Shown here piece after piece: positions 26,101-59,640 of a DNA stretch of 64,000 nt (position 1 is its first letter; every line of letters begins with the position of its first letter). This DNA is from Blasia pusilla. Taxonomy: Eukaryota. The notes beneath the pieces are model-generated. The model searched no databases. It had not been told where the DNA came from and saw only the letters and a list, made by a program, of their open reading frames with translations. The position numbers and the translations under genes are program-made. The DNA lies in the NCBI GenBank assembly GCA_050084515.1, contig CM114271.1:7192001-7256000 (forward strand), in the 5' to 3' direction.

Positions 26101-26876
26101 CAAAAATTAGACCCCAAGTCTGAAAGATGTATCTTCATTGGCTATGATGATGGAACTTAGGAATATAAGTGCTACATTTCATCCTCTAGGCAGCTTATTA
26201 TTAGTCGGGATGTTTTCTTTGATGACCTAAAGTCATGGTATGCTCCATCTGAGCCGATTCCACCTCTAAACTCGTCTGTTGAGGGGGAGAATATGAGTGT
26301 AAACCAACAGACATTGTCTTCAACTTCCCCAAGTACTAGTGCAGGATTAGGAGAGGTCCTAGATTCATCAGTTAAATCTGTAAGTCCATGGACGAGAAAA
26401 GTACATATTTAGTCTGTTGACACTAGTCAAAGCTCGAGTCAAGTGTCAGAGGCATCTACCTCTGAACAACAACTTCATATATCAAGTAGAGTTACGCATC
26501 CAGTTCATGGATTCATAAATGAAGATTTCATGTCGACACATCATGCATATATGATGACTACCCTTCAAGAGCAAGAGCCGAGTTGTTTTGAAGAAGCTGC
26601 AAGTAAAGCCGAATGGATTGAAGCTATGTGAGGCGGTTTGGCTTCATCGATTACTTGTTGAGATTTGTGTTAGTAACTTAGGATCTAGTGTAATATATAC
26701 ATACAATATAAGTAGCATCAAGCTTGCTAATAACCATGTGTTTCATGCTCGTACAAAGCATGTTGAGATGCACTATCATTTTATCAGAGAGAAAGTGCCT
26801 GGAAGAGAAATAGATCTTGTGTATATAGGTACAGATCAGCAAATTGTTGACATCTTTCCAAAGGCATTGTCGAGAT
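23122..26876 (+). mobile_element. Ty1/copia LTR retrotransposon copy C; RT deleted, 3' LTR missing
   Basis: 5' LTR 23122-23429, PBS TGGTATCAGAGC 23430-23441. gag, protease (WYIDSGA) and integrase similar to copy A. EWIEAM is fused directly to RNase H (CEAVWLHRLL) at 26626-26628; homology stops at ~26876. Confidence 0.92.
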
Positions 26877-38439: not shown

Positions 38440-40780
38440 CTCCATTAGTAATGCCTGTCGAAGAACTGCATTCATGGTTGGGGTGCTCGAGAGATTGAAT
38501 GAGAGAGACTACTCATTAAGTAATGCTTGTCGCAGCCTTGCGACGATAGACCCCACGCTCTGGTGAGACTGGGATTGGTGTAGAAGTGGAGAAGGTACCA
38601 TACGAGAGGAGACACTGTCATTTAATGACCATGCAGGGTGTTGGTGGGGAGCTTCCAAGAACACAGTCTAATTTACCAGATGTGGATCCCCCAATACATG
38701 TTACTTACCCGGACAGCAGCTTTGGGCAATAAATCTATGCTGCTGAATGTGTTGAACAGGTCTGGTGTTACCAAGGTGTAACCCGCGAGTAGTTCTTCAG
38801 TTCTGCTTGTTCAGGATATATGAGAGAGGTTAGACACTTGCACGTTTTGCTAAGAGTCTTCTCCCACTGCTTTGGTTATGGTATCTACGAAGGGTTTCTG
38901 GATGAAGAAGAGAGCGACTACTCAATAAGTGGTGCCTGTCCTAACCTTGGGACCATAGATCCCGCACCCTGGTTGGACGGTCCTAGAGACGGATGGGTGT
39001 GGCGAGAGGAAGAAGTGAAAAAGGTACTCGCAGAGGGAGACACTCATATAATGTGAGTGCTGACCATACAAAGTGTTGGTGCGGAGCTTCCTAGAATCAA
39101 CTAGGAAGCTCTTTACAAAAATACCTACTTTACCTGATTTGGCTCCCAACTGCACAAAGGTGTCACATTTTCACCTTCCGCCAGGGACTGAGAAGGGAGA
39201 CTATAGAGATTGTGGGTGAGTACTTCTATCTTAGGTTACAGCTCAAACCCAACAACCAATGGAGAACTAGTGGAAGTCGCAGCAAAATCAATGTAGGATT
39301 GAGGTGTTTGCACATGCTGCAATCCAACTGCAGAAGAATGGAACTGTGACATATCCCACAAACAATCCATATCTTCAAAGCGATTGTCATCCTCGTGACC
39401 TGGTTGGACAATGCTATAGACTGGGATGGGTGTAGAGACCATATACCCTACACTGGTTGGACAGTGCTAGAGCTGGGATGGGTTGAGAGAGGAGAGAGAG
39501 ACTCTACTCCGTAACCTTGCGACCATAGACCCCACACTCTGGTTAGAGACTGGGAAGGGTGTAGAGAGAGTAAGTGAAGAAGGTACCATATGAGAGTTGG
39601 GACAGAGTAATTCTCAGATAGTGCAAATGCTGACCATACTAAGTGTTGGTGCAGAGCTTCCAAGTGTCAACCAGGAAGCTCTTTAAAAGAGTGTCCACTT
39701 TAGCCGATTCAGAGGGAGAGTAGAGAGAGAGTGTGGAGTTATATGTGTAGTATGCCATGATGACCCTCATGCCCCCTCACACGATCACTCTCAACCTCAT
39801 GAGCAATCCCTGGACCACTTGGAACTAAACATCCACTGGAAAACCTCCACAGGAAGCCTAGAGGCCTATGTGTGAGAGGGATATGACATCCGACAGACAC
39901 CTTCACATCCACTGCCCTGGGGTTGAGACCGCACCCCATTGTCCATAGTTAAAATCAAACTGGTGACCTCTTCAAGAGGATTTAAGCCAATTCAAAGCTG
40001 GCATTACCAACTTAGCAATATCGGCATATGCTCTTGCTCTGTGTGTTGTGAATTTCGCTCAGGACACCAAGTAATGACTAGAGGTTTCATCCCCATCGTC
40101 ACACAAGGCTAGATGTGTTCCTATTCTGCTTTTCTTATGGTTCAAGGGGATTGCCCATCCTAAACTTGAACTTGAGCCGGATTCCCAAGTAAGGGGTTCC
40201 CCGCAAATAGTGCTTCAGTTCTGCCTTTTCGGGATATACTGTCAAGAGTGTAGGGTTGAGAGACTGTACTCATTAAGTAGTGCCTGTCGTAGCCTTGCGA
40301 CCATAGACCCCGCGCCCTGGTTGGACGGTGCTTGGTAGGGTTGAGAGAGAGAGAGAGAGAGACTTTATAGACCCCACGCCCTGGTGAGACTACTCATTAC
40401 GTAGTGCCTGTCGCAGCCTTGCGACCATAGACCCCGCGCCCTGGTTGGACGGTACTTGAAACTGAGAGAGACCGTACTCATTAAGTAGTGCCTGTCGTAG
40501 CCTTGCGACCATAGACCCCGCGCCCTGGTTGGACGGTGCTTGAGACTGGGATGGGTGTAGAGAGAGAAGCAAGTGAAGAAGGTACCATATGAGAGGAAGG
40601 AGAATCTCTCATATAGTGTGAGTGCTGACCAAACGTGTTTGTGCGGAGCTTCCAAGTGTCAACCAAGAAGCTCTTCACCACACCATCTACTTTACCTGAT
40701 TGGGATCCCCAATAGACATTACTTACCAGTGCAGCAGCTTTGGGCAATGAATCAAGGCTACTGAATGTGTTGAAGAGACT
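38440..40780 (-). pseudogene. Scrambled tandem array of duplicated 3' exon-intron-exon fragments of an unidentified gene
   Basis: Repeated terminal exon GAGSMVARLRQALLNE(*/Y) at ~38510, 38920, 39505 (partial), 40267, 40392 and 40476. Upstream exon LFNTFSS.D.LPKAA followed by GTAAGT donor at ~38705 and ~40722. Confidence 0.6.
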
Positions 40781-40957
40781 CAGATAGAGAGGAGAAATTT
40801 CCATTTAATATGGATTTTCGACTCCATGGCCAACCCTCCCCTTCCTTCCTTCTAGTAGTGCTTGCAGTATAAAAATGATTGTTAACTATTCTATTAAAGT
40901 GCTTGTACTTACGGCACAGTTTTGCAAAGATCTCTAAGGACGGAAACCTTCGAAATC

Positions 40958-43900
40958 CTACAGCTTGGAAGGTTTTGGGAAAATATCGGGTGTGAATTTC
41001 TGTGCAGAAGACATGCTTCCCTTGATCTTCATTTTGCCCCTGCACCCACAGTAAGCCAGAAAACGAAATGTCATGGAAATCATCCTAATGCAAGTCACAG
41101 AACCCAACGCTGCTGACCTGCACCTGTGTGTGGTGACATGACGTTATGGAAGGTGCATTTCTGTGTGGGGAAGAGTACCCAACTGCTTTCACAAAAAGAA
41201 GTGTTTCTTCTTGACAAAACATGTAGAGCTCTAAGAAGTAACCTAGCATTTACCAGTATTTGCCCCCTAATTTTCCGACAGCCATAGTTCATGTCATGTC
41301 AACATCCAGGGTAGATACTTACTATCCTGATGGATCCATACCTGATGAAAGCCATTTGAGGATTCAGTTTCCCTGTGGCAACACTCACAAAATCACTATC
41401 AACAAAAGAGAAAGTGGCATCTGGTTTCCCTTCAAAAGGTCCTGCACATTGTTCCAATGATACTCGGGTCAACTCTAGTGTATAGAAATGACTAGCCACT
41501 CACATCCATGATTGAGTTGCCAAAACCCTTGGATATGTGAAGCTATGCTAATAACTCCTCACACTGCAGACCCCACATTTACAATCAGTCAATACATTGT
41601 CATTCTGAGAAGAATTGATGCAGTGAAAATAAGACTCAGTGGGGAGGTGAATTTTGAATCCAGAGCCACATGCCGTTCTTCTATAGATGCGAGCATCACG
41701 AACTTTTATACGACAATTTAGCATCATTACTGGAGATGTCGAAGTAGTGGTAGATAGATAACCAGGAAGAGCATGAAAACTGGATTCACACCACATATAT
41801 CAAAAACAAAATATAGATTTGTGCAAGAAATAGTTATGAAGACAGGATATTGGTCAGTACGACCTTCCTCCCATGCAGTAATTCGAGCATCAAATTACCT
41901 TAAAAATACTAAAGCCAATCAAAACGCTTCATAAGCTACAGGGTTGCCTCATTCTACCCTCAATTCTAGGATTGGTTCCCAACTTTCCAGATCTACCTGT
42001 GACATAATCTTTGAGAGAGCTAGATCCCTCTAATTTATTTCCACATAGTCAACAACTATAAGAATTAGAAGTCACTCTATGTTCCAAGAAATAAATTCAG
42101 TGACTTCGGGACCGATCACCACATGTCAAACAAGAGGTGAAAGTAAGAATGATGTGGAATTCTCTGGAGATCTTAGAGCAACTTGCCTTTGTGCACCTTC
42201 AAGTTCTTCAGATCAACCACAAAGCTTTCCTCATTGAAACCGATTTTCTGCCACTCAAAAGTCCATGGGATCATCAGAGAAACACAGAATCCACTGGCTT
42301 CCTTCAAAGAAGATTTGAGGTTATCTGCTTTTATGTGACAACAATAAATTTGAGAAATAGCTACCCCCAGCTTTAACAAGTTTCTAAACAATTTCTCTGT
42401 GAGAGGAAGCCCAACCTGACTTGGTTCACTCAGAAATGACATTTATTAGGTGGTGGTTACATCTTTTCAATGTCTGGAAAAGCTAATCTTGTCATGCAGA
42501 CATAGTAAGGAGATGAATGCAACAAGGCATATTGACAATCAGGGAGAATTGTCAATAAGCTGGAACTAAGACTCACAATATACAGATCAGGGAGGATGGA
42601 ATGGAACAAGACTTTTGTGATGAAGCTGTGTAATGGAAATTGACATCATATTACTTTATCCTGATATGCATTGCAGTAATTGCCCCTCAGGGACTTGCTG
42701 AGAGAGTGGCTAGTTTGTATTTTTACAATATCTCCAACCCATATCCATTTTGAAAGCATCCTTCCACCCATGGAACTAGACCCTACAGAACTGTCTACCC
42801 AATCAAGATTTGTTCTACTGCCCTGTAGCTTACAAAAACTCAAAAACTCGAACAAACCATTCAGTTTTGACCTTCCTAACAAGAGCCCTTTAGTCGTATA
42901 GATAGTTCTGGGTTATCTCTACTCAAAAAATTTCCAGAAGTCAATCTTTGATTCAAAATTTCTAAAGATCTTGAAAGAACTCTGAAACTGTTAAAAATAT
43001 AAAAGCCCTGACGATTCTCTCTTTGAGAGTGATCAGGCTACGATAGGCACTACTTAATGAATGGTCTCTGAGTGTGATCAGTACAATGTAACATGTATCT
43101 GAGTGTGAGCAATACACTGTATGCATCACCCGCCAAAAGTCTTTTTGGGAGAATAATATGCTTTTAAATCTTTGTCTTGTGAATGATCTGAAGGAAACAG
43201 GAGAACACACTATGAGCTTCATCCTATCCCACATAAATAAAGAAAATTAGGTCTGAGGCTTAAGGACATCTTTCATGATTGCTTTTTCCTCATCAGAAAA
43301 ACTTTCTTTGCTTCTTTGAAGCAGACTTCAATGAAATGTACAAGTAAGTGACCTCATATGTTGGCATAGCAGTACAACAATAGTATAACACATATAGTAA
43401 GATTCTAACAGGGATACTGCATGATGGTTCAATAGTTGATCCACCCTCAAAAGACCTTTCACTGGTTGTGCAGCAGTAGGAGAATCCACTTGTAAACTTC
43501 AAGGGAATGTTTTCGAACCATTTTCCAGGAGAATTCTATTCAAAACATTGCAGCCACCTCACTGATAGACTCGGAATGCACAGGTTTGCAGAGCTTTGAA
43601 AGGACTACACAATGAGTTGGCTCAACTCAAGATCGTACTCTGAGAAGGTATCCACCTGGCATTCCCTGGTCCTCAAGAGTTTCAGAACTCACCAAGACCG
43701 GCAGAGAAGAGAGCATTTCTTTTCAAATTCCAGCAATTAAACAAATCAAAGCCCTTCGCATCAACTTGTAGAATTTTCAAAGACCCACTCAATTCAATAG
43801 GATACTAGTCAACCTGTTTTTGGATGTCTAGTGTACAATTGAGAATTTGAACTTAACCCCTTCTTTGAAATCATCTTCTGCACGGACCAGTCAAATTTAA

Positions 43901-46179
43901 TGTTTGTAAACTTAACTGTTGCTCCTAATCCTACTGTTCCCATCCTAAGCCTACACCAGCAACACAGTGTTGGCTACCCTTATGGTGAGGGACTTTGATC
44001 TTCAACAATTCAATCCCACTGTCTTGAACGTGTGGAAGAACCAAGGTTTACAGAAATTTTGGAATGAAAAACTTTGAAAAAAGTTCAGGATTCTTTTTTT
44101 TGCAATGGCCACATGGGGAACAAAAGATTGTCGTGTCAATAACAAATCACCGAATAAAATTTTTTGAAATAGAAAGTGCAACCTTCAACCAAACAAAAAG
44201 TTTGAAAGGGGAAGTTCAAACTTTCAGCCATAGAATATCTGAAAGCCTCTCTCTCACCATTGAACAACGGAAGTCACAAAGGCATATCCTCAAACTGAAA
44301 TTTGTTTTGGGCCATATCCTCAAGTAACATGTGTTTCTAGCAATTAGGAGCAAAACTATAGACAGGAAAAGTTCTGACCTCAAGTTGACTTTGGGTGACT
44401 CTCAAAGATCACCAGCCATTTTTTTCAATCTCTAACAGGCCAGCTAAAATCTATTTGCTGCGCATTAACATATAAAGATGTCCACCTCAGCTATCCTGGC
44501 TTTCTTTCTTCTAACCAGTGTGCAGTGGATTATATTTGCTACAGAGAAAGCAAATATAGATTATTTACCCTCAACACAGAAGGCTGCTGGTTCCAAGATG
44601 ACCTACTAGATTAAAACACACTTATGGCTCTGCTATGTTCACAGATAGAAAGCTCATTTAGAAGCCAAGGAATATACTCAGACCTAAAGGGTTGATTACA
44701 CCCAAACCATTGCTCCTTGTTGTGAGACCTTAGTCAATCACATTGACCTTGGCTGAAGTAGCCAAATCTGATCAGGAGGTTCATGAGCTTGATGTGAAGA
44801 AAAAACTCCGTAATGGTGATCTAGCTGACGAGAAAAGTCAGCAGCCTAGAAAATACTTGAAGATTTGTATGCGGCATAAATGTAGCTCTTACAGCTTGAA
44901 GGCATGTGACCGGCACTTGTCCATGGATCCAAGCCTGAGGAACAGGACAAACCGTCATGTTGTTGTGCTAATGTCCCAACCGACAAGGTTGTGAGTCACA
45001 ACACTCATCTGTTCACACTAATCCCTAACCGTAATTGGTTGAATAAGAACCCAGTTACCGGAGGCATACTACCCAATGACCAGAAACACCCATATTCTCT
45101 GAACAGTCCTAACTTCTCCACTTAGCTAGGAGTAATTTTAACAGGGGGGATCCGGGAGTATCTCCGTGAATGTATAGCAGAGATCATGATCGTACAACAT
45201 AAATCTGTAATTGAGGATCTATGTCCATTCTACGCCTAATGAATTTACATCTGCTCTTGATCTGTAGAGTCTACACCTAGCAGAACTAAAAAATAGGAAG
45301 TAACAACTTGGTCTAAGGGGTAGCTGTGAACATGAGGAGCACTGATCACACTCAATTTACTGGAAGCTACCATGAGAAGTAGATCGAAGTGTCAGTTAAG
45401 TAAGGTCTTTGGCATGCACTAGACCTCTGAGACTGGAGGAGTATGGTGCGGTTGAAGTGGACACAGAGGATAGAGCAGGAGCCAGGTCAAGAGTTCACAC
45501 TGAGCAAGAAAGGGGGTTATGCAATGATGTTCATATCTAAGCTGATCCAATCCGATGTCATCGTTTCCCTAAAGATAGCAAAGAGTGAGTGAACGGGAAT
45601 CTGGTAAATGCAATGAATACATATACTAGCTTTTCTAGAGCGTATTCCCCATCATTCCAGATGATCTGTATAGAACCAATTGGGATAAACAACCAGTACT
45701 TGAGCTCGAAAACGTTCACCACACACCCCATAACTCCTGTAAACAATTCAATGTAGCTGGAACAATCTTTTAAAAGCCTCCATAGTTTCTCCCATACGAT
45801 GACTAAAAACGAATACCACCAGGGTCGGGAGCCCCTTCGTCACTTTCTGCACTTCCAAACTTGTTGATTCTACAAAAGAGGAAATCATTGTCCGAATTGT
45901 TCATGTAGACCTGGACAATTGTGGGAATTAAGCCCGACACGGCGTAAGAAATGGCTGAAAATTCTCCAAGGTCGCTCCTTGGCCAAATTGCAGGACATAA
46001 ACAACGCTAGTACGAGGAAGATAACTCACCTTGGGAGCAACGTTGATGACGTACACGAGGCCAATTTTCTCCTTCAGCTTTTTTCCTTCCTCAGTTGTTA
46101 AGTGACCCCGCATCAGATCCAGCAGCGCTGCCGACTTCAGAGTGGAACTCTTGCTGAAAGCTTCCTCCTTGTCCGCCAT
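40958..46179 (-). CDS. SCP2: Sterol carrier protein 2 (peroxisomal), 130 aa, 4 coding exons
   Basis: Exons 46179-46030, 42247-42187, 41441-41342 and 41039-40958 splice in frame: MADKEEAFSKSSTLKSAALLDLMRGHLTTEEGKKLKEKIGLVYVINVAPK/KIGFNEESFVVDLKNLKVHKG/PFEGKPDATFSFVDSDFVSVATGKLNPQMAFIR/GKMKIKGSMSSAQKFTPDIFPKPSKL. Matches the plant SCP2 sequence pattern; PTS1 SKL; intron 2 donor is GC. Confidence 0.95.
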
Positions 46180-47717
46180 GATTTCCTTTCCTATATGCCC
46201 TCCTCCTCCCTCCTCTAACCGATGACGCGAATTCCGACCAGTCCAAATTACAACAAACGTCGGTCCCGCAAAACAACCGCAATTGCAAACGGCAAGGTAT
46301 CTCAGTCCCACAGCTGCAACGAACGGCGTCTCTCTTTCACTGTAGGAAGACGAGCACCGACGAGAAATAAGAAGTCGAATGTCTAAGCTTGTGCGCGTGC
46401 ACGTGCGAGCCGTGATAACTCCTTGAACGTGTCGAGCCCAGTGCGCCAGATATTAATGGGCACGAAATTGGCTCAGGAATCTGTGGTGAGCACCGAATGA
46501 TCACAAACCGGAGGAATTTTCTTCGGCAGTGGATCCAAAAAAAAAAAAATAGACGGGAAGAGAGGAATCGCGCGACTGTCTTACTCTCTCAATCACGATT
46601 TCTCGTGTGACCTCTCTCTCTCCAGTATATCATGTATCACCTGCGCCTTGTCTTTTTGTGAAGCCGGGAACCGGAGTTTTTAATCCGCTCTCCTTTCGAT
46701 ACAAGAGCAATTGATGCTATCTCTTTAAGCCTAAGAATGCCCGTATTAGTCGGCATACCCTCTCACTTTGAGAAAGCCTCGATCCAACCCATAGTTGTCT
46801 TAAGTAATTCTTTTTTCATTTCCTTTTCTTTTCGTTCTATGATTAGAGTTAAATGAAAAAGGCATATCCATTTTATCATAAAGTAAACTTCAAAAGAGGA
46901 CAAAGAAAGGTAATAACATCTAAAAAGAGGAGTCAATTAATGGAATATAAAAAGAAAATGACAAACATCGACTCAATGAGCTACACGATTGATAGTTTGA
47001 AACAAATCTGACAAGAGCACGAGTGGTTGGACAAACGTCTAATTTTTTTCTCCACATAAGAGTTTGCCTTCCTTACACCATTGGATCGAGCGTCCCTTCT
47101 CTCCTCTACCAAGAGCTTCTTTTACCATGCACCAATGGATATGGATCCCTTGAGATCGATGTCCCTTCTCCCGTCCGTCGGAGAGTCATAAACTATAGCT
47201 CTCTACACCCTCTTCCATAGCGGACAACCTTTATGAAAACTTACTTTGCTTAAGAGTATCATATAGTGGTGTTACATGTAGTGGCCCTTGGTCTAGCTTA
47301 GGGCATACCTTTTCAACATGTCCATGAGACCACCTTGTTCAAGGACATATGTGCGTATGTTACCTTCCTAGAGCATGGGGGGATTGAAGAGGGGTGTGAC
47401 CAAGGTGAGGTTTGGAGAGACTTTCAAGGGCAAGATGCTATCAATGGTGGATTAGATTTGGATCCTTTGAAGTTGAAGGTGGTTTGGCTCCAATTTTTAT
47501 TAGATGTTTCTCACTTATGTCCACAAACACAAGTGTACCACAACTCGCCCCCCTAACTGGCGGTTAGGTCCCTCTAACTCCCAGGTAGCCCTATACATCT
47601 ACTACATGCTATACACCTTCTTGGGTGCACGAATCAGAAGGCCGGGTGCTAGGTTGCCCCATCATTAGTCGCCTATCTGTAATCCATATCATGAAAAGAT
47701 CAAGTCATCTACCTCTC

Positions 47718-47860
47718 CTAAGTATATCGAGGACAAACCCACCTTCCAATAGGAACAACATCCATACGTGGAGTCAAACACATCATGTGCCAACCCCTAG
47801 AACACCGATCACACACCAACATACGGGTTGCGTTACCAGCAGACCCACACAACATGCAGC
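47718..47860 (-). pseudogene. PHD finger at the integrase C-terminus
   Basis: CMLCGSAGNATRMLVCDRCSRGWHMMCLTPRMDVVPIGRWVCPRY: C4HC3 pattern with last Cys as Tyr; same ORF as the integrase C-terminal region. Confidence 0.85.
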
Positions 47861-50844
47861 TCAAGCTAGCACGTATCATGGCTAAGCTTGGGTCAATAGC
47901 ACCATCTACATTTGGAAGATGACATGACGCACAATTACGCACATGGTCCTTCCAAACAACTCCATCACGACCCTCCAACATGAGAACTCCAGAAGCTAAC
48001 ATCTCGCGCACTCGTAAAATAGTGCGGCCTGCCGTCACATCTAACGTTGTTGGTGCAATCTGCTGCAAATAGACATAGTCCCCCACATGGAACCTATGAA
48101 TCGATGGTCGATAACCTCCACCCCGAATGGTTGCATACCGCAACGTATCCCTGTGTTGAGCAATGGCAAGGTTCTCAAAGGTTGTTAGCATAACTCTCCG
48201 AAAGAGCTCTGCCCGCTGAGAACACACTCTCATCCACATCTCTGGGTTATCAAGGTTCACCACCTCACTAGACTCCCGACGAATTACTGCTGGCAAGTCT
48301 GGATCTTGGCCGTATAACAGAAAATAAGGTGAGAAGGAAGCCAAGGATGCTTGGCGATCGAACCTATACCCCATGGCTAACCATGGCAATCGAATATCCG
48401 GTCTCCAAGATGCCCTTCAGAGGGCCACACTTGCCCAATGCCCTCTTCACCGTCTGAACCACATGCTCAGCCAAACCATCCGCCTCTGGATGATCTCGAG
48501 ACATGGTCTGATGATCAATCAACGCCTTGTCACACAAGACCTAAAACTCACCCTGAAACTCTGTACCTTGGTCGGTCAGCACTTCAGCTGGTGCACCAAA
48601 ATGACTAAACACTCTATTAAGAAACGCATACGCCCTTCCCTCACTTGCCTTATCAGGTAATGCCACCAACTCAATCCACTTGGAGAAGTGCTCCACCATC
48701 GCCAACACATATCGATGATGTCGTACACTCAACGGTAACGGTCCCGCAAAGTCCACACTCCAAAGGTAACCCAACCCCATAATAGGCAAGGGGTGTAACT
48801 GTGGTGCAGTTTAGGGTTGAATGATGCCCTCACCCGGTCACAAACCATACAACGTGACACCAACTGCTGCACCTGAGTATGCATGCCACGCCACGAATAC
48901 TGACCAAGGAGTAAGCTATATGTACGCTTTACCCCAAAATGTCCCAACTCCTCATGGGCATGTCGCACAATGCCCTCTCTCTGAGCCAAATGCCGCACTA
49001 CTCGTACTCTACCATCCTCCCACACACGTAGAATATGTGTTCCCTCCAATCGATACCTCTTAGCACGTTGAAGAACACGGTCTCGCTCCTTGGCACTCAC
49101 TATGCTTGGCACCCTACTGGTCCGTAGGAACTCCAACACCAACGCATCATCATGAATATCACGTTGATCCGTACCACCATCTCCAACCTTAGTATCTGAA
49201 GGCTCGCCATCTACCCTCTGACTAGAGTAAGATGTCATGTGGTCCTCCATACTAGAGTCCACCCCTAACCAACATAAAAAGGCGGATGCATGCCAACCTG
49301 TCACCATCTCTTCATCAACCTCGCCATGCCATCTAGCCCCAGTTGCATCCTCTTCGCTAGTATATGGGTTCCTACTCAACCCATCAGCATCAAGGTTGGC
49401 AACTCCAGGTCTATGTACCATCCGGAAGTCATACTCCTGTAAGATAAGAGCCCACCGTGCAAGCTTCCCTGGAAGCTTGTCAGACTCCATCAACCACTTG
49501 AGCGGCTGGTGATCAGTAACAAGGGTAAATTGTATGCCAAACAAGTAACACCTAAAGTGTGCCACAGCCCACACTATTGCCAAGCACTCTCCCTCATATG
49601 AGTGCTTGGCAATAGTGCGACTCCGCTGCATTATTCGAACGACTTGCATAGGCCACCACAAACTCCATGTGCTCATCATCATGTTGTGTCAACACCGCTC
49701 CAAGTCCTAACCTACTCCAATCAGTGTGTAATTGAAATGGGCGCCCTCTGATAGGTCTCCTCAAGATAGGCGCCGCCACCAACTGGGCCTTGAGCTCCAC
49801 AAAAGCTCTCTCTTGATCATCTCCCCAGTGCCACTCTTGATCTGATTTCAGCAATTGGTTCAAAGGCTTTGCCATAGCACTAAATCCCTTCACATACCTC
49901 CGATAGTAGTTCGTCAATCCCATGAATGCCCGGACTCTACTCACATCTACCAGATGCGGAATAAGTGCAATAGCCTCCACCTTTGCTTGCTGAACTCCCA
50001 AACCAACTGGATAGATCACATGATCCAAGTACTCAACATCCTCATGGAAGAACTTACACTTTCTTGGATGCAAACGTAGACCATGAGCTTTCAACTGCTC
50101 AAACACAATCTGCAAATGTATCTGATGCTCCTCCACCGTGTTACTGAACACCAAGATATCATCAATGTAACACCGAACAAAATCCAACCCTGCTAGGATC
50201 CTGTCCATCACTCTCTAACACTCGGTAGGTACATTCTTCAACCCAAAGGGTAAGAATTTCCACTGGTACAAACAATCCTTGCCATGAGAGTTGACACCCC
50301 AAAATATTGTCTTGGCCTTGTCACTCTCCCGAATCGGCAATTGATGGTATCCTGCCTGAAGATCCAAAGTACTGAAAATCTTTGCCTGTCCCACCACATC
50401 AAAGATCTCCTCAAGTGTAGGCATGGCATACCTATCGGCCTTGGTTTGCCGATTGATAGGACGGTAATCTCCACACATCCGCCTATCCGTGTAGTTGCCA
50501 TGCATATCCTTTTTAGCAGGCATGACAGTGGCTGATGCATACTCTCTATGCGACAACTCCACTAATCCATCCTCCAAAAGGTCCAACGTCCTACTCCGAA
50601 TCAGGTCCCTCTCCATATCACTATATTGGTAGGGATGATGGAAGATTGGGGTATCACTAGCCAAATCAATCCGTATACCGGGTCCAACCAGAGCACCCAA
50701 CTCCTTCATGCTAAAGGCAAAACAACTCCTATAAGCACGTAGGAACTGTGTGAAGCGTCGTTTCTCACCTCCCGTAAGCTTGGGCCCAAGTAATGGCTCC
50801 CAAGTCTCCTTCACTGGCACACTAGAGGGAGAGGGCGATGCCAT
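47861..50844 (-). pseudogene. Gypsy pol: RT, RNase H, integrase (frameshifted/stopped)
   Basis: ORFs 50215-50844, 49594-50211, 48729-49682, 48541-48789 and 47718-48389 carry RT, RNase H, HHCC and DDE motifs. Confidence 0.92.
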
Positions 50845-51069
50845 TGGTCGCTCATAACCCCCTCACAAGATGGTACACCCTTAGCTACACCATCATCTCG
50901 AGCAAATAACTCCTCCACCAAAGATGAGCAACCAACTCCACATGCCCAGCCATTACATCCCATCTACTCCAAGGATGCAAAATACTACTCTTCTCGCCCC
51001 CAGCCGATGCCTCTACCGTCCCGGTAGCCATCGAGCTCATTACAAGGGGTGGAAGACCCACAGACATAG

Positions 51070-52050
51070 TCCGAAGTCGGCGCTGCTCGGCCATACCAAG
51101 ACTCAAAATCCAAGTCAAATAATTCAGGTCCATGGACTGACCCAACACATGACGTCGTGAAGCCTCGAAATAGAAGCAACATTTGTCACACCAAGAGCAA
51201 ATCCCATCGCAGCTCTCTCTTATCAGCGTTAGGCTCCACCAACTGTCGCACATGAGAATCCCATACAAGCCCCTGACCACCTTCCCTGTAGGCATGTGAC
51301 GAGGGAAAACTCACAAATGTGGGTAGTGCCATCCTAGGCTGGCCCACACGGTTCACCACTGCCATGGGTGACCGATCAATAACCCTCACCACTTGGGAAA
51401 GTCGCCCAAAGATTCAAGATACTATCCACTTTGTCAAAGCGAGGATCCCGCAGACCGCATCATATGCTCGACGAGAACCTCCCTAGGCAACAAGTTTATC
51501 CACCACAAGCATGGACGATGTGCACGCGAGCCAACTCGCGCTGCATCCAACAACACCGCTGGTCCAATCCAAGAGCGCACCTCATGAACATTCGCCATCA
51601 TCTGGGTTCGAGTGTCACCCAACAATAGAATATTCTCCAAAATGTAAGCTGGAGCACGTGCCTGATGAACATGAAGATATCGTAACACCCGTAACATCTC
51701 CCAAAACAATCGAGACCTAGGGTCGTGTTATCCCTCACCACGACCAACACGTGTATGACCCTGACATAGCCATCCAGCAATCACCAAATCCACAGGACCA
51801 ACCCTCTCAAGGTCGTGCGCCGCCAACAATGCAATGTGTGACGGCAAAGCACGCTGGCACCCACGAATAGCTGATGGTGGCAAAAACTCAGGATATCTCC
51901 GCATCAACTGACCAATATATCGAGATGAGACTCTCTGGGCTGTCTCATCTTGCTCCACATACACGTATCTCTGCACAGGAATACCGGCCTGCAACACTGC
52001 AGCCAAACCAGTCCTAATCCCACCAAAGAGATCTAATACACACATGCCCT
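51070..52050 (-). pseudogene. Cytosine-5 DNA methyltransferase catalytic domain (DNMT3/DRM-like) inside the retrotransposon
   Basis: Motif I VLDLFGG (~52017-52045); II YVYVE; IV DLVIAGWLCQG (CTA one transition from Pro CCA); V *HDPRSRLFWE; VI YILENI; VIII SRAHRPCLWWINL; IX EPNADKRE/AMGF; X RRHVLGQSMDLN. Canonical, non-permuted order. Confidence 0.88.
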
Positions 52051-54612
52051 CCGGTGAATACTGCCATACAATGGGTGTAGTATCCAAAGGGGATAACCCA
52101 ACTGGACCAGAAGTAGGAGTCCGCTGTGGGGCCTCCCCTTCCTCGTGAGGTATAACAGCCTCACACCAAGCCTCCTGCACTAGGCGATCAGCCTCCTGCC
52201 GTAGTGCACCGCCTGAACTCCAAAGTGGCACATCCAACGATGAGGATGCCACTGCTGCAAAACTAGGGACCTCCTCTTCCTCCTCATGCACAAGAGAATC
52301 CATAGCAGAAACATTACCCTCCAAAAAGTCTCTTGGCCAAGTGACTACTCCACTAAAACCAGCCACAGATGCTAACACCGTTGGGGAAGACCCTCCTGGT
52401 CGAGCCCCATAGATAAATCTCACAGGAACTTGGCTCATACGTCCATCCTATAAGACGCTGTCTCTGTCCAGTAATCCATCTGAAAACCCATTGGGTACAA
52501 TATTGCTCCTCCAACTAGTACATCATACGACTCGGCTGATGTGACCACTGCAGGTACTCCCAAGCGGGAGCTATCAGTCGCATGATCTGGTCTCAACTGT
52601 GCAGAGAACTTCTCCCGTGTCATGAATTAAGACCTATCATTGGCTCCTCCAAGTGATGTTTGAATCTGGAATGGGCAAGGCTCAAGCTTTGACCTCCGAA
52701 TACCCAAACCAATACATGCCGCCTTTTCCAACATCAAAGGTTGGGCACCAGAGTTTAACAAGATTCTATCTGGTCTATACACCTGTCTTGTAGGACTCAC
52801 CAATCGGAATATCCCACTCCGGTTGTCCAACATAAATACACCAGGTGTAAGCCTCTCACGATCAATGGCTGGCCAGGCTGGTAATGCATCCATCTTCGCC
52901 GCTACTGCCTGCCAAGTAGCATTGGTACTCAATGCTACACCTGATATAGAGGGTCGTTCCACCGCAACACCCTCATCCACCTCAGCACGTGTAGCAATAA
53001 CACTCCCACGTTCACACAACGTGGCTGCTAGCTGAAATACAGGAGCTAAGTCAACTCCTAAAGCCATCAGCTCCGTGGCCGAAAAAAATGGGGATCCCAA
53101 CACTGAAGTTGCCATCCGCAATACTGCACTGGATGTTGCATCCGTGTCTACTACACGCGATATAGATGCCTTAGTCCCCACTGTCGGCTCAATAGGCTGT
53201 GTAGGAATCATGGATGGAGTCCTAAGCACCTCAAACAACAAGAATGACTGGGGAAGCCTAGCTTGCCTCCCAGCCTCACCCCTCTATGGGTCCAACTCCA
53301 CAGTAGCACCACGTGGCTCTGACGCTCGAGTGGCTCCTCTCGTAACTATAGCTGATGCCTCAACCTGTGCTGCACTCGCCATATAAGAGAGATCATCCCC
53401 TCCATAAGAGGTGGAAGCCCCTGCTCCCGAACCTGATCTATGTTGGATACCAGCCATAGTAGCCAACTCTCGCCTCCAATCTGCTCAATCCCGGCGACCA
53501 TAGTCGACTGTCGAGTGGTAGGGGTAGCCAACATAGGCTCTCCAACCACGGGTCCACCTCTACCACCTCTACCATCTCGGCCTCTTGGAGCTACTCCACC
53601 ACGGCCGCGGCCTGATCTCAACTCTGGATGAAGATCAAAGCAACGCTCTCGAGGATGACCTAGTCTCCCGCAATGATCACACTGAGTTGGGGCTGACTGA
53701 GGCCCATCCTCCAAAGTCCGTCTCCCATCCTCTTGGGGAAAAAACTTCCTAACATGATCACCTCCACATGTCCAACATGACTGTCCTTGCTGCGGGGCAG
53801 CAAATTAAGGCAATGGTCTCTACGCAAGTGTCCCTCTAGGACCTGACTGAAGTTGTGTGTACCCCCACGACTCCCACTACTACTACCACCACCACTACTA
53901 CGAGACGGTGAGGTGGGTTGTTGAACACGAGAAGTAGTAGTTATATCCCTAGTGAATGCAGATGTCACCACTCTCTACTTCACCATGTTAAGCTCAATCT
54001 TCTCAGATAGAGCAAACACATGGGTCAATGTGGGTGAATCATCACTCATAAGAGTAGCATCACGTACCCTGCGGCGCAACTCTCTGTCCAAGATCCCATA
54101 CCAAAACTGGATTGCCTGAGCCTCAGTCACACCCTGGGTAATTGAAATCAAGTGTTGCATATGAGTGTTTGCCCTCACAAAGACTCTCACCAGTCTTTCG
54201 CTCAAATTCCTGAAGACTCCTGAACTTCTCTGTCTTCACTCCCTGATAGTTCTTCTTCAACCTCTTGAAGAACTCTACAACCGGGTTGAACGATGGTGGG
54301 GCACTTGTACCTCCACTAGTACCCCCACTGGTACCTCCATGGGTACCCTCCACTGGTACCCCCACTCCGGCTCATACTTATACCACTCAACGTCGGGCTA
54401 GCTGGCATAGTAGGAGCACTACTACCAATACCACCATGGGTGATAGACACATAGCCTGGAGACCAATATTGTCTCCACGCCTCAATCTCAGCAACATGGT
54501 CCTTCCTAAACTCATGGTAATAATCCATGGGTGGTCCCTCTAAGTGCTGAAACAACCCCTTCCAAGCCAAGAAGGGTGTAAACAACGTGGCGTTCCGCAA
54601 CATCTGCATATC

Positions 54613-55630
54613 TCTCGTGCGCCTACTCTCCTTGAATGTTAATCTTGTTTGTTGCGGAAGCGTGCGTTCAGTAGGTCACGCTCTCAACACTGATCTGCAT
54701 CCAAACACGCACTTTGGTTAGTCGGGTCTTGGATCAATCAGCGGGATTACTTTCCGAGTTCTCGTCTCGGACTCTCATCAAACTCAACCTTCCTAGTTTC
54801 GCGGTTTACAACACGGGCAAATCTCGAAAGACTTGGGACAGACTTTCTGGTCGGTTCAGGAACCTGATACGGCGTTTCGCGCCTAGCGGTTCCAACTGTC
54901 CAATGGACATCCAATGAGTTCCTCATCAAGACTCGCACGAAGTGAATCTCGAGTTGGAATCCAAGTGTGGCGTACAAAGTCCACTCCCTTGGATCAAGTT
55001 TGGGTTTCGAATTCCCACGCCAAACTCCCGTTCCATTCCGTGCCTCTGAAACGCCGTTTGGCGCCCAAAGTGGGGATTCGTTTCCCGAGACATCTCGGAG
55101 AGAGTCCTCCCTTACTAGTACTTCTGGGGATCTCCGGGGGCCCCCTACATTTAGGGAAAGACATCCGGGCCTCTCTAATTGGCCCTCAACCCGATTGCTC
55201 TCTCAATTGTTTTTGGCCAATATCTCAGCCTGTACTTATGCGTTTGCTGAGATCTTTGATGCGTCGGAAGCGTCTCAAAATCAGCTTTCCAACGCGCCCT
55301 TACTTGTTCCAAATGCATCTTGGAGCTCAACGTTATGGTCCTAAACACAGTCAGATTCTCCCAAACGCTAGTCGTGTTCCAAATTGGTTCTCACCTCTTT
55401 GGCAACCAACCTCCCAAAACTCAACTCATCTCAAGTCTTGGCTCGCGTTTGGTCTAGGTTTCCTGATGGCGACCACTGATGCATGAAACACACAACTCTG
55501 TTCCGCGTTTCTTCTCTTAGACTTTTCCAAACGCCTCTCCAAAGCGCAAACCTCGCAGCGTGAGTTCCTTTGAGTGCTGATGTTTCGCTTGACGCCTATT
55601 TGGTTTTGTTTGGCTATGAGGGTCGCGAAA
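54613..55630. mobile_element. 1018-bp insertion in gag, probably a solo LTR
   Basis: Exact 5-bp TSD ATATC (54608-54612, 55631-55635). Removal restores gag ...DTWCD-MQMLRN.... Short terminal inverted repeat TCTCGTG...CGCGAAA; no recognisable coding domain. Confidence 0.8.
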
Positions 55631-58600
55631 ATATCACACCATGTATCAAACTCCTGCATGAAGTCCTCCAACTCAATGGTGCCCATTGCACCCGAGTATC
55701 GTCATGGGCCCTTCATGGCCCCATATATCCCGTCCATGTCCCAAATCAATGGAGTTGCAACACTCGATAACAACGTAGAAGACTCGGTGTTTGAAACACC
55801 CTTGTCCTCCTCTTCATCAACCTTCGGAAGTGGAAAAGGTAGCCGATACCTCAATCCACTCCGTGTGAAACCACCACTGTACGCACCTCGGTCCCCAACC
55901 AGACCACCAAAGAACTCCGTGATGACCAACGCCGATGCCGCACCATCACCAAATTACCATCACTAAGTAACCAAGTGACATCGATGTCGCTGTACTATTC
56001 TAGCTCTACAAGCTATGGGTGTAGGCAACCTAACCCGTCAGCACCACAAGAAGCCTCCCATGGTCTACTCATCATCACTCCAGCCTCACTACCGGTAGCA
56101 CATAGGAGTAACACTACTCTGGAAATCAGCGTCAACCCTAACGATGGGCGCGCAAGCAAGAAGCAACGATGGAGGGGATCCAAACAGAGGAAGTCCAAAG
56201 AAAACCCTCCAATCTCAAATGGAAATCAAGGTAACACAATCCACCAAACGTGGCGCCCTGAATCCACAAAACCCACCACACAATTCTAACGCAATAGCTA
56301 CTCCGCCGCGGGTCGATGACGTGCTAGTCGGACTCGCCACACCTAAAAATATCACCTGCATGGAGAGGCTACATCGTACTATGCGCTAGAGGTCCATCAA
56401 CCAAAAAACTTGAGATGCATAAAGTGCCTAACACATCTCCGAACATCACCAAATGAGCTACACCAGTGTGTACACTGGCATAGTTAAGAACTCAGCAGTT
56501 AAGTGTCTTCCAGGCATAATAGCCCAAAGATGGATGACCAATTATGCAACATTCAAATCACAAATCCTGTAAAATTGCCTCACGCCCAAGCAAGCAAGCT
56601 TGCTTGCTTGCTCCTTGCTCCTTACTCCGCCTCTCACGCCCACTCGCCCCGAGCTACCACGAGTTGCCTCGAAGCCTCGAAATGCTTGAGACATGAACCC
56701 TATCACCCCGTTCGCCATGCTTTGCTATGGAGAGAGGCCCAACCAGGGCGCCACCAACGGGATAGGCGTCTCCAACAACGAACGAGTCACCAACCAACCA
56801 GCCCCTCCGATCCGCTATCCACCATAGCGGACCTTGAGCTAGTTTGCGAAAATTTTGATCAGCAATTACTCCACAAATCCTTGACCAAAATTGAATCTAT
56901 TTAAACCAGAATTCATTTGACCACCATAGCTATCTCTCCACAAAAAATCAGCTAACATCAAGCTCTGTACTCCGAGCTAAAAATCAGACAAACTTGTTGT
57001 CCATACACCTCAAGAATCGCAAATCCGACAGCGCTTCCGCCCAGATTCATGCACGCAGAAATCCGCAACGCTCCACACACTCAAGAAGATAGCTTCACTT
57101 GAGATCACAATACAAGTAGCAACAGGAACCTCTCACCCGATCTGGATGAACTTCAACAGAGCTTCCGCATTCCAAGCTCTCCACATTAGAAAACTGTCGA
57201 ACACGAACCAGAATCTTCAATCTTTGATAACTTCCAACTCCCTTGACGAAATCCGGAAATCTAAAGCGCGTTGGAAAGCTCTGAGCAAGACGCTTCTTTT
57301 TCAACCAACCACGCACCAGATTCCTACCTCCAATATAGGCCACAAGCCACAAACATCCATGGCTGAGTACACAATCAGCCCTAACTAGATCCTACTAATC
57401 CACAATCCAAGCTACCATCGATCTACTCGATGTATGAAACTGCATCTCTACCTAGACACTACGGTCCTACATAAGGTATGGCCTCTACTAGCACACTATA
57501 CTCTACGACATAATCCGTATGGTCATGACACTTGACTTTCATTCTATGCCCTCTAATGCCATGATGTATACATTGATATAATATTTAATGTGACGTAGCT
57601 ATCGTAGTTGAATGGATGTATGTTGTATGATGATGTGTATACGCATGACATATTGATTTTTTTTACAAGATTATAGCATTTGAGCAATGAGAATAATTAT
57701 TTTAAAGCATAACTCAAAATAAAACTATAACATCCTGTACCAAATCCCGAGGTGTCAAAGGAATACCATACCAAGTGACATAAAATCCAAAGGTAGTGAC
57801 CCGGAAAAAGCGCCCACTCGGCGCTCCAACAAATGAAATTTGGTTGGAGTGACACCGATTCTTGGGATATCTAAAATACATCGGATCCATAGGAACTTAG
57901 GAAGCAAAACAGATCCATCCTGGTGTAATCCTTGACTATGCAAATAAGGTTCTTACAAGAGTTATTTTTTCATAGTTGGAAACTAAGACAACAACTAGAG
58001 AAGTCCAACTCATAAATGGATTACTAAATAGGTGTTTGTATGAAAGAGTAAGGGGGATCACACTCAAAGGAGTAGCGCTTCAACAACTAGCAAAGCCACT
58101 ACCACCACAAGAGACACAAGAAGATAAGAAGAAAGAGGATATATAGGTACAAAAAGATAGACAAGAAAATAATTTACTACTCTTCGAAGTCCATGTGAGA
58201 GAGCATCTAAGTGTAACCAAAGAGATTTGAAGTAAATTAGGAATACCCTCGTGAGACATGAGAGGAAAAAATTAGTGGTGGCCAAAATTATATCAATGGG
58301 TTCGGATACTCCAGATGATCTCTATGGAGGAAAATGGATGTGGTGAGGAGCAAGGCTACCATATTTTTCAATGGTTATTTGATAACATACTAATATATTG
58401 TGTGAATAATTTGTTATAAGTGAAGTGATTGGGTATGTACAATCACTTCACTAATAACGGTTTTTTTTAACAAAATTTCCACATAGGATGGTATGATTTC
58501 CAAATATTTCCACTCTTCTTTGCTCGCTTTCAGAGAATGCTACCCTCAACATTCTTTGAAAAAAAAGACGATAGAAGAAGATGTCGTGGCCTAGGCAAGT

Positions 58601-58915
58601 ATGAGTTCTAGAGGGAAGAGATCGGAATCAGAAGAAGATAGGAACAACTTTGTTGTTAGCTTGGCTTGAGATGTACAATAATTAAAAATTCTTGCGCCCG
58701 TAGAAGAGGAAACATTTTCTTGCTATCCGATAATCACATATCAAGCAAAGAGGTGTTTGCAAATCAAGAAGGTACTCTCCAATAACAAAATAGATGAGAT
58801 CATCTTGATATTACCTTTCACAAGCACTATGGCACCCCTTAGCCCACAATTGGTGAGGGGTGATTGAGTTTGGACCGAGAAAGGGGCCAATCCAGTGGAA
58901 ACTTAGTTTCTCCCA

Positions 58916-59150
58916 TCTATACTATTATTTGAGGAGGGGTGTACTCTAGGACTCTCCTATGGCAACACCTCTGGAATACAACACGTATTTCTCCTGCAGG
59001 GCATTTTAAATACGGGGCAGGTTCAACACAAAAGGTTAAGGCACATTCAAAGGGGGCCGTATACAAGAGAGGGCGTATACAAGAGGACCGTGCGCACAAG
59101 GAGGGCCGTATACTAGAGAGGACCGTGCATGGCACGGTCACGAGCACTAA
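58916..59150 (+). mobile_element. Small non-autonomous Helitron
   Basis: A|TCTATACTATTA 5' end; hairpin GACCGTGC-ATG-GCACGGTC (59121-59139); CTAA|T 3' end (CTRR); no TSD. Confidence 0.7.
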
Positions 59151-59640
59151 TTAGTATACATTCTCGTGGAAAAAGGCCTTCTTCATTTGCAAACACTTTT
59201 CTCTTTGACAAGTGGTAACTGGATAATAAAAGAATATTTTACATGTTACAAGAAATTTTTTTGGAATTTGTAATCAACATAATTAATCTATTTTCTTCAC
59301 TGAAATTAACTCTTAGACACTTTTTTATTTGCTTACCTTACTAATTATTCCAGAAAACCAGTGTATGATAATAACAAGCCCAATAGTTTCTCTTTGTCTC
59401 ACTTGCTGGGAGGGATCGCATTACAAGGGTGCGCGTTTCGTTTCGCTGCATATGCCACTTGTTTCTGCTTGTCTCTCCTGCTGGGTGAGGTCGATCGCTG
59501 CATGTGCACCTTGTTCGAGTGCTGCTGGGACTGAATTGTGGACAAGGGTGGGGAGGGGAATGCAACGCCGAGGTTTTAGTTTGTGTGTCTTCTTTCCGCT
59601 TCGAAAGAATGGACTGATACTATCTGGATCCTGAAGCAGA

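Follow-up and report, generated by a model that had tools for sequence, protein, structure and literature searches.

A short segment of Blasia pusilla DNA, positions 47718–47860 of a stretch of 64,000 nucleotides (the window), raises the question of whether a PHD finger stands at the tail of a retrotransposon integrase, where chromoviruses carry a chromodomain, and whether this putative chromatin reader is paired with a DNA methyltransferase. We found that the segment encodes the C-terminal PHD of the integrase of a decayed Ty3/gypsy retrotransposon, which lies on the minus strand at about 55737–47718.

The PHD finger and the element around it

The PHD is encoded at the end of an ORF of 232 residues (47718–48416, minus strand), the translation of which ends ...CMLCGSAGNATRMLVCDRCSRGWHMMCLTPRMDVVPIGRWVCPRYT*. 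The codon of the first zinc ligand, Cys187, is at 47858–47856, that of Tyr231 is at 47726–47724, and the stop codon is at 47720–47718. ORF mapping confirmed 47718–47860 on the minus strand as the coordinates of the feature, and the translation agrees with both the coordinates and the motif quoted in the initial annotation. Pfam assigned PF00628 to residues 187–230 (E 1.4e-9, 38.2 bits against a cut-off of 24), and a phmmer search of PDB matched 81 PHD chains at E ≤ 0.01 (best, 6.6e-15). The strength of the match is far beyond chance. The features of the element are listed below, and P numbers denote related database proteins.

47718..47720, minus strand: stop codon, 1 residue past the PHD (ORF translation)
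47724..47858, minus strand: PHD finger, C4HC3 pattern (Pfam PF00628, PDB phmmer, AF2, Foldseek)
47859..48416, minus strand: integrase C-terminal region, helices followed by an SH3-like beta-barrel (tblastn with P0017 and P0006; AF2 strands)
48430..48810, minus strand: integrase catalytic core (rve), in a different frame (Pfam PF00665 at 48541–48810, E 6.2e-12; tblastn, frame -2)
48811..49688, minus strand: C-terminal part of RNase H and integrase H2C2 zinc-binding domain (Pfam at 48729–49688: PF17917, E 1.5e-19; PF17921, E 1.8e-14)
49594..50862, minus strand: reverse transcriptase (RT) and start of RNase H (Pfam PF00078, PF17919)
50924..52075, minus strand: DNMT3-like C5-cytosine methyltransferase, in at least 3 frames (BLASTP with P0017; tblastn with P0245, P0248, and P0133)
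52441..53472, minus strand: protease-region remnant (position and homology to ORF1 of relatives)
53589..54612, minus strand: gag-like region, spread over several frames, with a CCHC zinc knuckle (tblastn with P0245 and P0248, residues 35–380)
55630..55737, minus strand: ORF1-like start, the first 36 residues of Marchantia models (tblastn with P0245 and P0248, residues 1–36)

Because the integrase C-terminal region belongs to the same ORF, and rve, H2C2, RNase H, and RT precede it on the minus strand, the PHD occupies the slot where chromoviruses carry a chromodomain. The proposal of a C4HC3-type PHD at this position is thus borne out. In the PHD-bearing ORF, only PHD and PHDvar_NSD were reported by Pfam at E ≤ 0.01, with no chromodomain and no ADD family; the chromodomain at the integrase C-terminus by which chromoviruses are recognized was not detected in this ORF. 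The PHD forms the extreme C-terminus of the ORF, as it does in close relatives, and its distance to the protein end in these is 0–15 residues. The window PHD retains seven of the eight C4HC3 zinc ligands and has a Tyr at the eighth position (residue 231). In an alignment of 34 sequences, this column is Cys in at least 90% of the rows and the other seven ligands are invariant, which agrees with the earlier remark that a Tyr-to-Cys change would repair the domain. The full set of eight ligands is a property of the family (90/97 relatives) and not of the window copy.

The order of the element is gag-CCHC-protease-DNMT3-like in an ORF1-like part, followed by RT-RNaseH-integrase-PHD in an ORF2-like part. 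Integrase follows RT-RNaseH (Pfam, tblastn), which is the Gypsy domain order. The Marchantia ORF1-type proteins P0245 and P0248 map from 55737 down to 50924 by tblastn, and the ORF2-like part begins at RT, where residue 57 onward of P0006 maps from 50823. Only one colinear copy was present in the window in tblastn searches with P0017, P0006, P0002, P0245, P0248, and P0133. In the integrase C-terminal region, AF2 placed strands at residues 114–164 (pLDDT 83–93 for residues 131–170), and the NLAIAQHRDTLRYA and CH motifs are conserved in the 34-sequence alignment. The DNMT, protease, and gag pieces of the window gave no Pfam match, even at E ≤ 1, and their homology was established through relatives. 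The protease remnant is matched by residues 415–740 of P0245 at 68% identity and by residues 772–909 of P0133, overlapping the Pfam aspartyl protease of the latter (796–888). The CCHC knuckle is translated as CDHCGRLGHPRERC in ORF 53346–53804. The ORF1-like start shows 81–83% identity with P0245 and P0248, and about 1 kb of unmatched DNA (54612–55630) separates it from the remainder.

The copy in the window is a non-functional, dead relic, of value only as a marker of its family: it contains frame changes and stop codons, has no detectable LTRs, carries Leu for Pro in the Pro-Cys of the methylase, and has a Tyr at the last zinc ligand. At least five frame changes and internal stops were found, and the tblastn frames from the DNMT to the PHD run -1/-3/-2/-3/-2/-3. 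Terminal repeats or LTRs were not found by a repeat search, by self-BLAST of the whole window, or by sensitive BLAST of 43000–47720 against 54300–60000, and no direct repeats were found flanking or within 43000–60000. This absence is probably due to decay or truncation. The ends of the element are not delimited by repeats, and its span is given as approximate. The surroundings are rich in transposons, with Copia remnants at about 2.6–11 kb and 23–27 kb of the window.

Co-inheritance of the PHD and the DNMT3-like domain

The PHD is a family trait. Among 97 longer proteins that matched the integrase tail at E ≤ 1e-5, precomputed Pfam annotation places PF00628 in 91, and a regular expression found the complete ligand pattern in 90; absence from related copies, which would have spoken against the earlier proposal, was thus not observed. 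Three of the seven pattern-negative proteins stop within or at the integrase C-terminal region (P0007, P0055, and P0061), P0072 stops 36 residues past it, P0003 is a chimeric gene model, and P0064 and P0073 fail the ligand pattern, yet Pfam calls a PHD in both. The best integrase-tail relatives are Marchantia polymorpha models with 79–84% identity, P0001–P0003 among them. The methylase ORF gave 32 matches, 20 of which are named M. polymorpha proteins (54–66% identity); other named matches are from Calypogeia (a liverwort), Sphagnum (a moss), Klebsormidium nitens, Pleodorina, and Volvox. By its matches, the clade belongs to the green lineage: those with names come from liverworts, mosses, Klebsormidium, and volvocine algae, a range that rests on few such matches, and many other members are environmental sequences. 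Judged from the best matches, a liverwort is the most likely source of the window.

The claim that the element also carries a DNA methylation domain proved sound. Methylase pieces of the window matched the Pfam-positive DNMT of P0017 by BLASTP (E 7e-17 and 9e-11), and P0245 showed 66–69% identity to the window methylase by tblastn. Among PDB structures, the relative P0104 is closest to DNMT3A/3B (DNMT3A, E 1.5e-8). Motifs I (FGGxxxG), IV, VI, VIII, and X are visible in an alignment of 26 DNMT domains, together with ENV, RxR, and a DNMT3-like C-terminal motif. These similarities indicate that a DNMT3-type C5-methyltransferase domain lies inside the coding region of the element. In the window its catalytic motifs are not intact and the domain is split over at least three frames; motif IV reads GWLCQ, compared with GWPCQ in P0104, so that Leu replaces the Pro of the catalytic Pro-Cys.

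Precomputed PF00145 annotation is present in only 5 of the 97 integrase-tail relatives. An iterated HMM search seeded with the DNMT of P0017 detected the domain in 34 of the first 100 proteins; this count includes two chimeric Marchantia models, P0002 and P0003. A Pfam scan of ten further proteins gave sub-threshold to moderate PF00145 signals at the same place in seven. A word-indexed search with the DNMT region of P0017 returned only four proteins, and full HMMER was needed. Pfam misses most methylases of these elements (5/97 flagged, against at least 32 by the iterated search); therefore, surveys of transposon-borne DNMTs probably under-count them.

Two layouts were recognized. In type A, the DNMT lies upstream of RT and the PHD is at the very end; this is the layout of the window and of P0017, P0020, P0056, P0058, P0090, and P0091. 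In type B, the order is RT-RNaseH-DNMT-integrase-PHD, followed by 300–400 further residues with an amino-methyltransferase-like domain at the C-terminus. Among the first 100 proteins, 12 full-length and 14 partial ones show the contiguous DNMT-integrase-PHD arrangement of type B. In Marchantia and its relatives, the DNMT ends an ORF of about 1150–1330 residues that starts with gag, and RT-RNaseH-integrase-PHD proteins, about 1030–1170 residues long, begin some 100 residues ahead of RT. A type A element is therefore usually divided between two ORFs, the first of which encodes the methylase and the second the PHD. Whichever the layout, the PHD always comes immediately after the integrase C-terminal domain.

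The pairing was counted from both sides. The stretch between RNase H and integrase was covered by 35 of the 100 proteins and contained a DNMT in 12. Six of the other 23 reach at least 300 residues upstream of RT, and a DNMT was present there in all six; the remaining 17 of the 35 are uninformative on the DNMT. From the PHD side, a DNMT was thus found in 18 of 18 informative PHD-bearing relatives. A possible exception is P0043, a protein of the B lineage that starts within RNase H and has no DNMT between RNase H and integrase. For the DNMT side, HMMER was run with residues 1–330 of P0017 over 1.84 billion representatives and matched 1558 proteins at E ≤ 0.001, of which 373 reached E ≤ 1e-10 and 36 reached E ≤ 1e-30. 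The best 150 of the 1558 were used, of which 144 were new; 36 of the new proteins have a complete integrase C-terminal region with at least 55 residues beyond it. A PHD was present in 34 of these 36 informative proteins; it is full in 33, and P0222 has altered last ligands. The other two, P0181 and P0226, possess a DNMT without a PHD, and they group in the tree with P0097, the PHD of which is atypical. The PHD and the DNMT3-like domain are co-inherited, near-obligately, across the clade, and their co-occurrence is stronger than had been guessed.

In a tree of 115 integrases, all seven type A rows fall in one group of 34, together with 15 of the 16 rows in which no DNMT intervenes between RNase H and integrase. 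This group has an SH-aLRT of 94, under the 95 mark, and includes a long-branched type B row (P0100); the rest of the tree consists of type B or undetermined rows. The tree contains database proteins only and was rooted at the midpoint, and the window is placed in it via the 79–84% identical P0001–P0003. The pairing is not a matter of chance: it has outlasted deep divergence, with integrase-tail identity as low as 34%, as well as a relocation of the methylase within the element.

Likeness to cage-less PHD fingers

The finger had been likened to PHDs that bind unmodified H3 tails rather than to the ING type, and alignment with PDB PHDs supports this likeness. The best 60 of the 81 PDB matches include KMT2C/D, DPF2/3, CHD4/5, ATXR5, KDM5A/B/D PHD1, PHF12, and WSTF, as well as BAZ2A/B, PHF21A, PHF10, KAT6A/B, UHRF1/2, RCO1, MTF2, and ORC1b; no ING, BPTF, or TAF3 was among these 60 (phmmer). 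An AF2 model based on the 34-row alignment had a mean pLDDT of 75.2, with 83–93 over PHD residues 181–230. Foldseek superimposed its PHD on solved PHDs over 43–54 columns, in accordance with a PHD fold. The matches included DPF2 (1.1 Å, 43% identity), BAZ2A "in complex with unmodified H3K4 histone peptide" (1.3 Å, 40%), the ATXR5 PHD "in complex with histone H3" (1.5 Å, 45%), and KDM5B PHD1 (2.2 Å, 44%). Unmodified H3 is named in the titles of the BAZ2A and UHRF1 entries in PDB, and H3 in that of ATXR5. The top matches of the whole model were Tudor-plus-PHD structures (PHF1, MTF2, and UHRF1) with a TM of about 0.2 and an rmsd of 12–16 Å, and they reflect only the barrel-plus-PHD composition.

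Cage-less PHDs as a group (BAZ2A/B, ATXR5, UHRF1, DPF2/3, KAT6A, and KDM5A/B PHD1) show 40–48% identity and 1.1–2.2 Å, and they share with the window family the motif (M/L)L.CD.C..G(W/Y)H..CL.PPL..(V/I)P.G.W.CP.C. Unlike the solved examples, the PHD of the window lies in a transposon polyprotein and belongs to a sub-lineage without an acidic loop. In a column tally of 93 relatives, the Asp of LCDxC is kept in 88, the Gly before Trp-His in 79, the Pro of (V/I)P in 91, and the Trp preceding the last Cys pair in 88; these rows were chosen by the ligand pattern, so the invariance of the ligand columns is by construction. In readers of K4me3, a cage Trp is located two residues before the zinc His. 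That position is Gly in the window and in the same 79 of 93 relatives, and the tally of the 93 shows no conserved aromatic residue beside the first Cys pair. On this comparison, the PHD is predicted to lack an aromatic cage for trimethyl-lysine.

An acidic loop is present in readers of the KDM5/BAZ2 type, and in solved readers of unmodified H3 acidic residues contact R2/K4 of H3. The corresponding loop, between the second Cys and MLLCD, is acidic and PDDE-like in type B (Asp in 41 of 62 rows at loop position 13 and, in a second loop column, Glu in 32 of 62), whereas it is neutral or basic in type A and the window (for example, GSAGNATR). This leaves H3K4me0 recognition less clear in type A. 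Nor is specificity fixed by likeness to a reader class; among the closest PHDs, some recognize H3R2, K14 acylation, or other partners. As far as likeness goes, the sequence and the model suggest that the PHD resembles cage-less PHDs, several of which were solved with unmodified H3.

Possible roles of the PHD and known counterparts

The mechanisms considered here concern active family members, not the copy in the window. We consider it fairly probable that in this Ty3/gypsy lineage, represented here by an integrase-PHD relic and characterized by co-inheritance of the PHD and the DNMT, the PHD tethers integration to H3K4-unmethylated nucleosomes. The PHD would hold the integrase-DNA complex on nucleosomes with an H3 tail unmethylated at K4, that is, in chromatin away from active promoters, much as chromodomains tether chromoviruses to H3K9me chromatin. 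DNA in chromatin of this kind may then be a target of methylation by the DNMT3-like enzyme of the element, and in type B the DNMT, integrase, and PHD could be one protein. Chromoviruses (Ty3/gypsy elements with a C-terminal chromodomain) likewise have a small histone-reader fold at the integrase end, which is thought to tether integration to a chromatin state; here the reader is a PHD, and the likely mark, as inferred, is the unmodified H3 tail instead of H3K9me. Because the PHD always follows the integrase barrel, including in elements that encode the methylase in a different ORF, it most likely has the integrase as its primary partner. The constant presence of a DNMT3-like domain points to an additional role, connected with methylation of the same chromatin. 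That the PHD binds histones and steers integration is a proposal, and targeting seems the most likely role, with coupling of the reader to the methylase as a non-exclusive rival. Joint action is qualified by the layout of type A, in which the DNMT is in the gag-protease ORF and the PHD is in the RT-integrase ORF, and the two need not act as one protein.

In the non-exclusive rival reading, the main task of the PHD is to guide or license the DNMT3-like enzyme of the element itself to chromatin unmethylated at H3K4, with methylation of new copies or their surroundings as the outcome. The PHD would then be a functional analogue of the ADD domain, which reads H3K4me0 in animal DNMT3A/3B/3L. The near-obligate co-occurrence favors this reading, as do the contiguous DNMT-integrase-PHD of type B, which could form one mature protein, and the DNMT3-like nature of the enzyme (P0104 against PDB; de Mendoza 2018, PMC5890265, in the available part of that paper). 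However, type A has its DNMT upstream of RT, in many cases within a distinct ORF (about 1250 residues) that terminates shortly after the domain, and nonetheless keeps the PHD at the integrase tail; in both layouts the PHD adjoins the integrase C-terminal domain, which points to an integrase function, and Pfam found no ADD-type family in the window ORF. Both ADD and the window PHD are cage-less PHD-type zinc modules associated with a DNMT3-type methyltransferase. ADD, however, consists of a GATA-like finger, a PHD, and a helix fused to the methyltransferase, whereas the element has a plain PHD on the integrase, often in a different ORF from the methylase. The comparison with ADD made at the outset consequently holds as an analogy only, and guidance of the methylase as the main function of the PHD seems rather unlikely.

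A wider proposal is that these elements carry a self-contained toolkit, in which a PHD of the H3K4me0 type and the DNMT3-like enzyme would direct both integration and de novo methylation to chromatin unmethylated at H3K4, type B would add the amino-methyltransferase-like domain, and ADD-DNMT3 would be a convergent counterpart. We put this forward only tentatively, as a doubtful extension. If true, the toolkit clade would be ancient and widespread, surviving as relics in land plants such as Marchantia.

It is less probable still that the PHD reads no histone at all and is instead a zinc module with another task, such as binding of a host chromatin protein, nuclear import, integrase multimerization, or DNA binding. 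Non-histone partners are known for PHD folds, the acidic loop is missing from type A, and the whole-model Tudor-plus-PHD matches reach a TM of only 0.2, which leaves the domain context uninformative. Against this stand the closest solved relatives (40–48% identity), which bind the histone H3 tail, and the position of the PHD, which is analogous to that of the chromovirus chromodomain. In addition, the surface positions D22, G27, W28, L33, and P41 are conserved in the column tally, and we take them to be features of the H3-tail-binding PHD group. That the PHD and the methylase belong to host genes, such as a domesticated PHD protein, is highly improbable: M. polymorpha does annotate Mp_7g09570 as "PHD-type domain" and Mp_8g17980 as "DNA (cytosine-5-)-methyltransferase", but at least five frame changes, as well as internal stops, interrupt the colinear gag-PR-DNMT-RT-RH-IN-PHD array, P0002 and P0003 from Marchantia are chimeric models in which DNMT and integrase-tail pieces have been joined, and paralogues are many (20 named M. 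polymorpha proteins among the 32 methylase-ORF matches).

Integration targeting by a PHD, the reading we prefer, has a precedent in Chlamydomonas. The Gag-Pol of Gypsy-7a_cRei from Chlamydomonas has a PHD finger, and its intergenic insertions are 2.6 times commoner than expected; the PHD was proposed to minimize harmful insertions, and the authors note that the bias may reflect selection (10.1101/2022.06.16.496473, available part). The domains named in the part of the figure legend available for this element include no methyltransferase, and it may belong to the type B clade, in which Pfam misses the DNMT. PHD is a common accessory domain of Chlamydomonas transposable elements according to the accessible parts of two papers (10.1101/2022.06.16.496473; PMC8557442), and REM1 is a PHD-bearing LTR element of Chlamydomonas, as described in passages of citing papers. 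Volvocine relatives, from Pleodorina and Volvox, are among our matches. Among chromatin domains joined to domains of transposable elements, PHD and Chromo are the most frequent (10.1101/2021.11.30.470311, available part). The Chlamyvir clade was considered as a PHD carrier and rejected; it is a chromodomain clade, and "PHD" occurs 0 times in PMC3350952 and PMC6317226.

The DNMT also has a precedent. KnitGypsy-Dnmt3 of Klebsormidium nitens is a Gypsy element with a DNMT3 domain, regarded in the accessible part of its description as an acquisition in that lineage (PMC5890265); here the family extends also to liverworts, mosses, and volvocine algae. Elements of Symbiodinium were assayed in a methylation-free host in that study. 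Both elements are Gypsy with a DNMT3-like domain in the coding region, unrearranged in KnitGypsy-Dnmt3, and the DIRS-like repeat arrangement reported for that element in the same part of the source is absent from the window, where no repeats were found. "PHD" does not occur in the main text or three supplements of PMC5890265, and "KnitGypsy" occurs in no other paper among the full texts searched. The K. nitens integrase-PHD proteins P0015, P0021, and P0072 share the integrase lineage of the closest relatives of the window and may stem from KnitGypsy-Dnmt3 itself. EpiLTRs/DAM-LTRs of Cymbomonas and Euglena, with adenine and cytosine methylases and a chromodomain, likewise pair a DNA methyltransferase with a histone reader (10.64898/2026.05.21.726589, available part). 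Their reader, as far as that part describes it, is a chromodomain, in contrast to the PHD plus C-terminal amino-methyltransferase-like domain of type B, and in the same part "PHD" appears only in the name of a fellowship and a PHD domain is not mentioned.

A PHD in green-algal Gypsy elements and a DNMT3 in a Klebsormidium Gypsy element are therefore already known, and a PHD instead of a chromodomain is not new. The new points are the co-inheritance of the PHD and the DNMT, the reach into land plants, and the methylases hidden from Pfam. The pairing was not found in print: the search, which left out subscription journals, theses, and figures, returned no paper on PHD-DNMT pairing or on such elements in land plants. 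Transposons with their own chromatin reader and DNA methylase could choose their landing site and shape its methylation. The family occurs in Marchantia, a genetic model with methylome and histone-mark maps; therefore, tests of insertion sites and methylation would be practical.

C-terminal extension and DNMT-like domain of the type B relatives

The type B relatives, in which the order is RT-RNaseH-DNMT-integrase-PHD, have a conserved C-terminal extension of 280–480 residues past the PHD, which is common to 64 proteins (including P0069, P0046, P0100, P0033, and P0035). The window's lineage lacks such an extension, unlike these relatives. The motifs DPxGxG ... ND ... SP(P/W)(F/Y) are found in the extension, and it resembles amino (N6-adenine or N4-cytosine) methyltransferases. 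Matches to the Pfam D12 class are weak (E 0.0035 for P0046, 0.044 for P0100, and 0.16 for P0069). If the extension is indeed amino-methyltransferase-like, the type B elements would have a PHD and two methylase-like domains. A short segment of the YxVxYxDG type is located upstream of the methyltransferase-like part, and it may be a small barrel domain.

Most type B DNMT domains in an alignment of 26 sequences have GWECQD as their motif IV, with Glu substituting for the usual Pro ahead of the catalytic Cys. The Pro-Cys pair is retained in P0017, P0056, P0069, P0084, P0099, and P0100. Precomputed Pfam annotation assigned PF00145 to 5 of the 97 integrase-tail relatives. An iterated search identified a DNMT-like domain in 34 of 100 proteins, or 32 without two chimeric Marchantia models; transposon-borne DNMTs are probably under-counted by domain-based surveys.

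Three proteins, P0097, P0181, and P0226, form a small type B sub-lineage in the tree (SH-aLRT 99). The PHD is missing from P0181 and P0226 and is atypical in P0097, and the DNMT is retained in the sub-lineage, which provides a natural comparison group for PHD loss.

Integrase tail, internal gap, and Marchantia gene models

The alignment of the integrase tail and PHD (34 sequences) covers the integrase C-terminal region of the window copy at 47859–48416 (−). There, the N, AQH, D, and Y inside the stretch NLAIAQHRDTLRYA are invariant, and a near-invariant Cys-His pair (CHLP) is located approximately 20 residues upstream of the PHD. At the other end of the element, the part matching residues 1–36 of the Marchantia gag-protease-DNMT (ORF1) models is followed, after a gap of approximately 1 kb (54612–55630, −), by a second matching part that starts at residue 35. 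Either the window copy contains an insertion here, or the gene models include an intron.

The annotated Marchantia "genes" P0002 (Mp_7g09570) and P0003 (MARPO_0060s0038) are chimeras in which DNMT fragments are joined to the integrase-PHD tail of decayed elements. Their transposon origin is masked by the database label "PHD-type domain protein".

Surroundings of the element in the window

Features around the element
2457–10814 and 23120–26876: large inverted and direct repeats, 78–88% identity, up to 3.5 kb
3783–4379: RVT_2 (Ty1/copia), within the large repeats
24120–24701: copia gag, within the large repeats
25678–26160: SH3_retrovirus, within the large repeats
38495–40804: cluster of short repeats (dispersed or tandem), units of ~60–320 bp, 70–91% identity
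59635–60381 (+): ORF with RCC1 repeats (PF00415, E 1.6e-18)

The large repeats are Copia elements, nested or duplicated. The short-repeat cluster adjoins a GC-rich block at 34–40 kb, whose long ORFs gave no Pfam matches. The ORF with RCC1 repeats is located approximately 4 kb outside the 5' end of the element and is probably a host gene exon.
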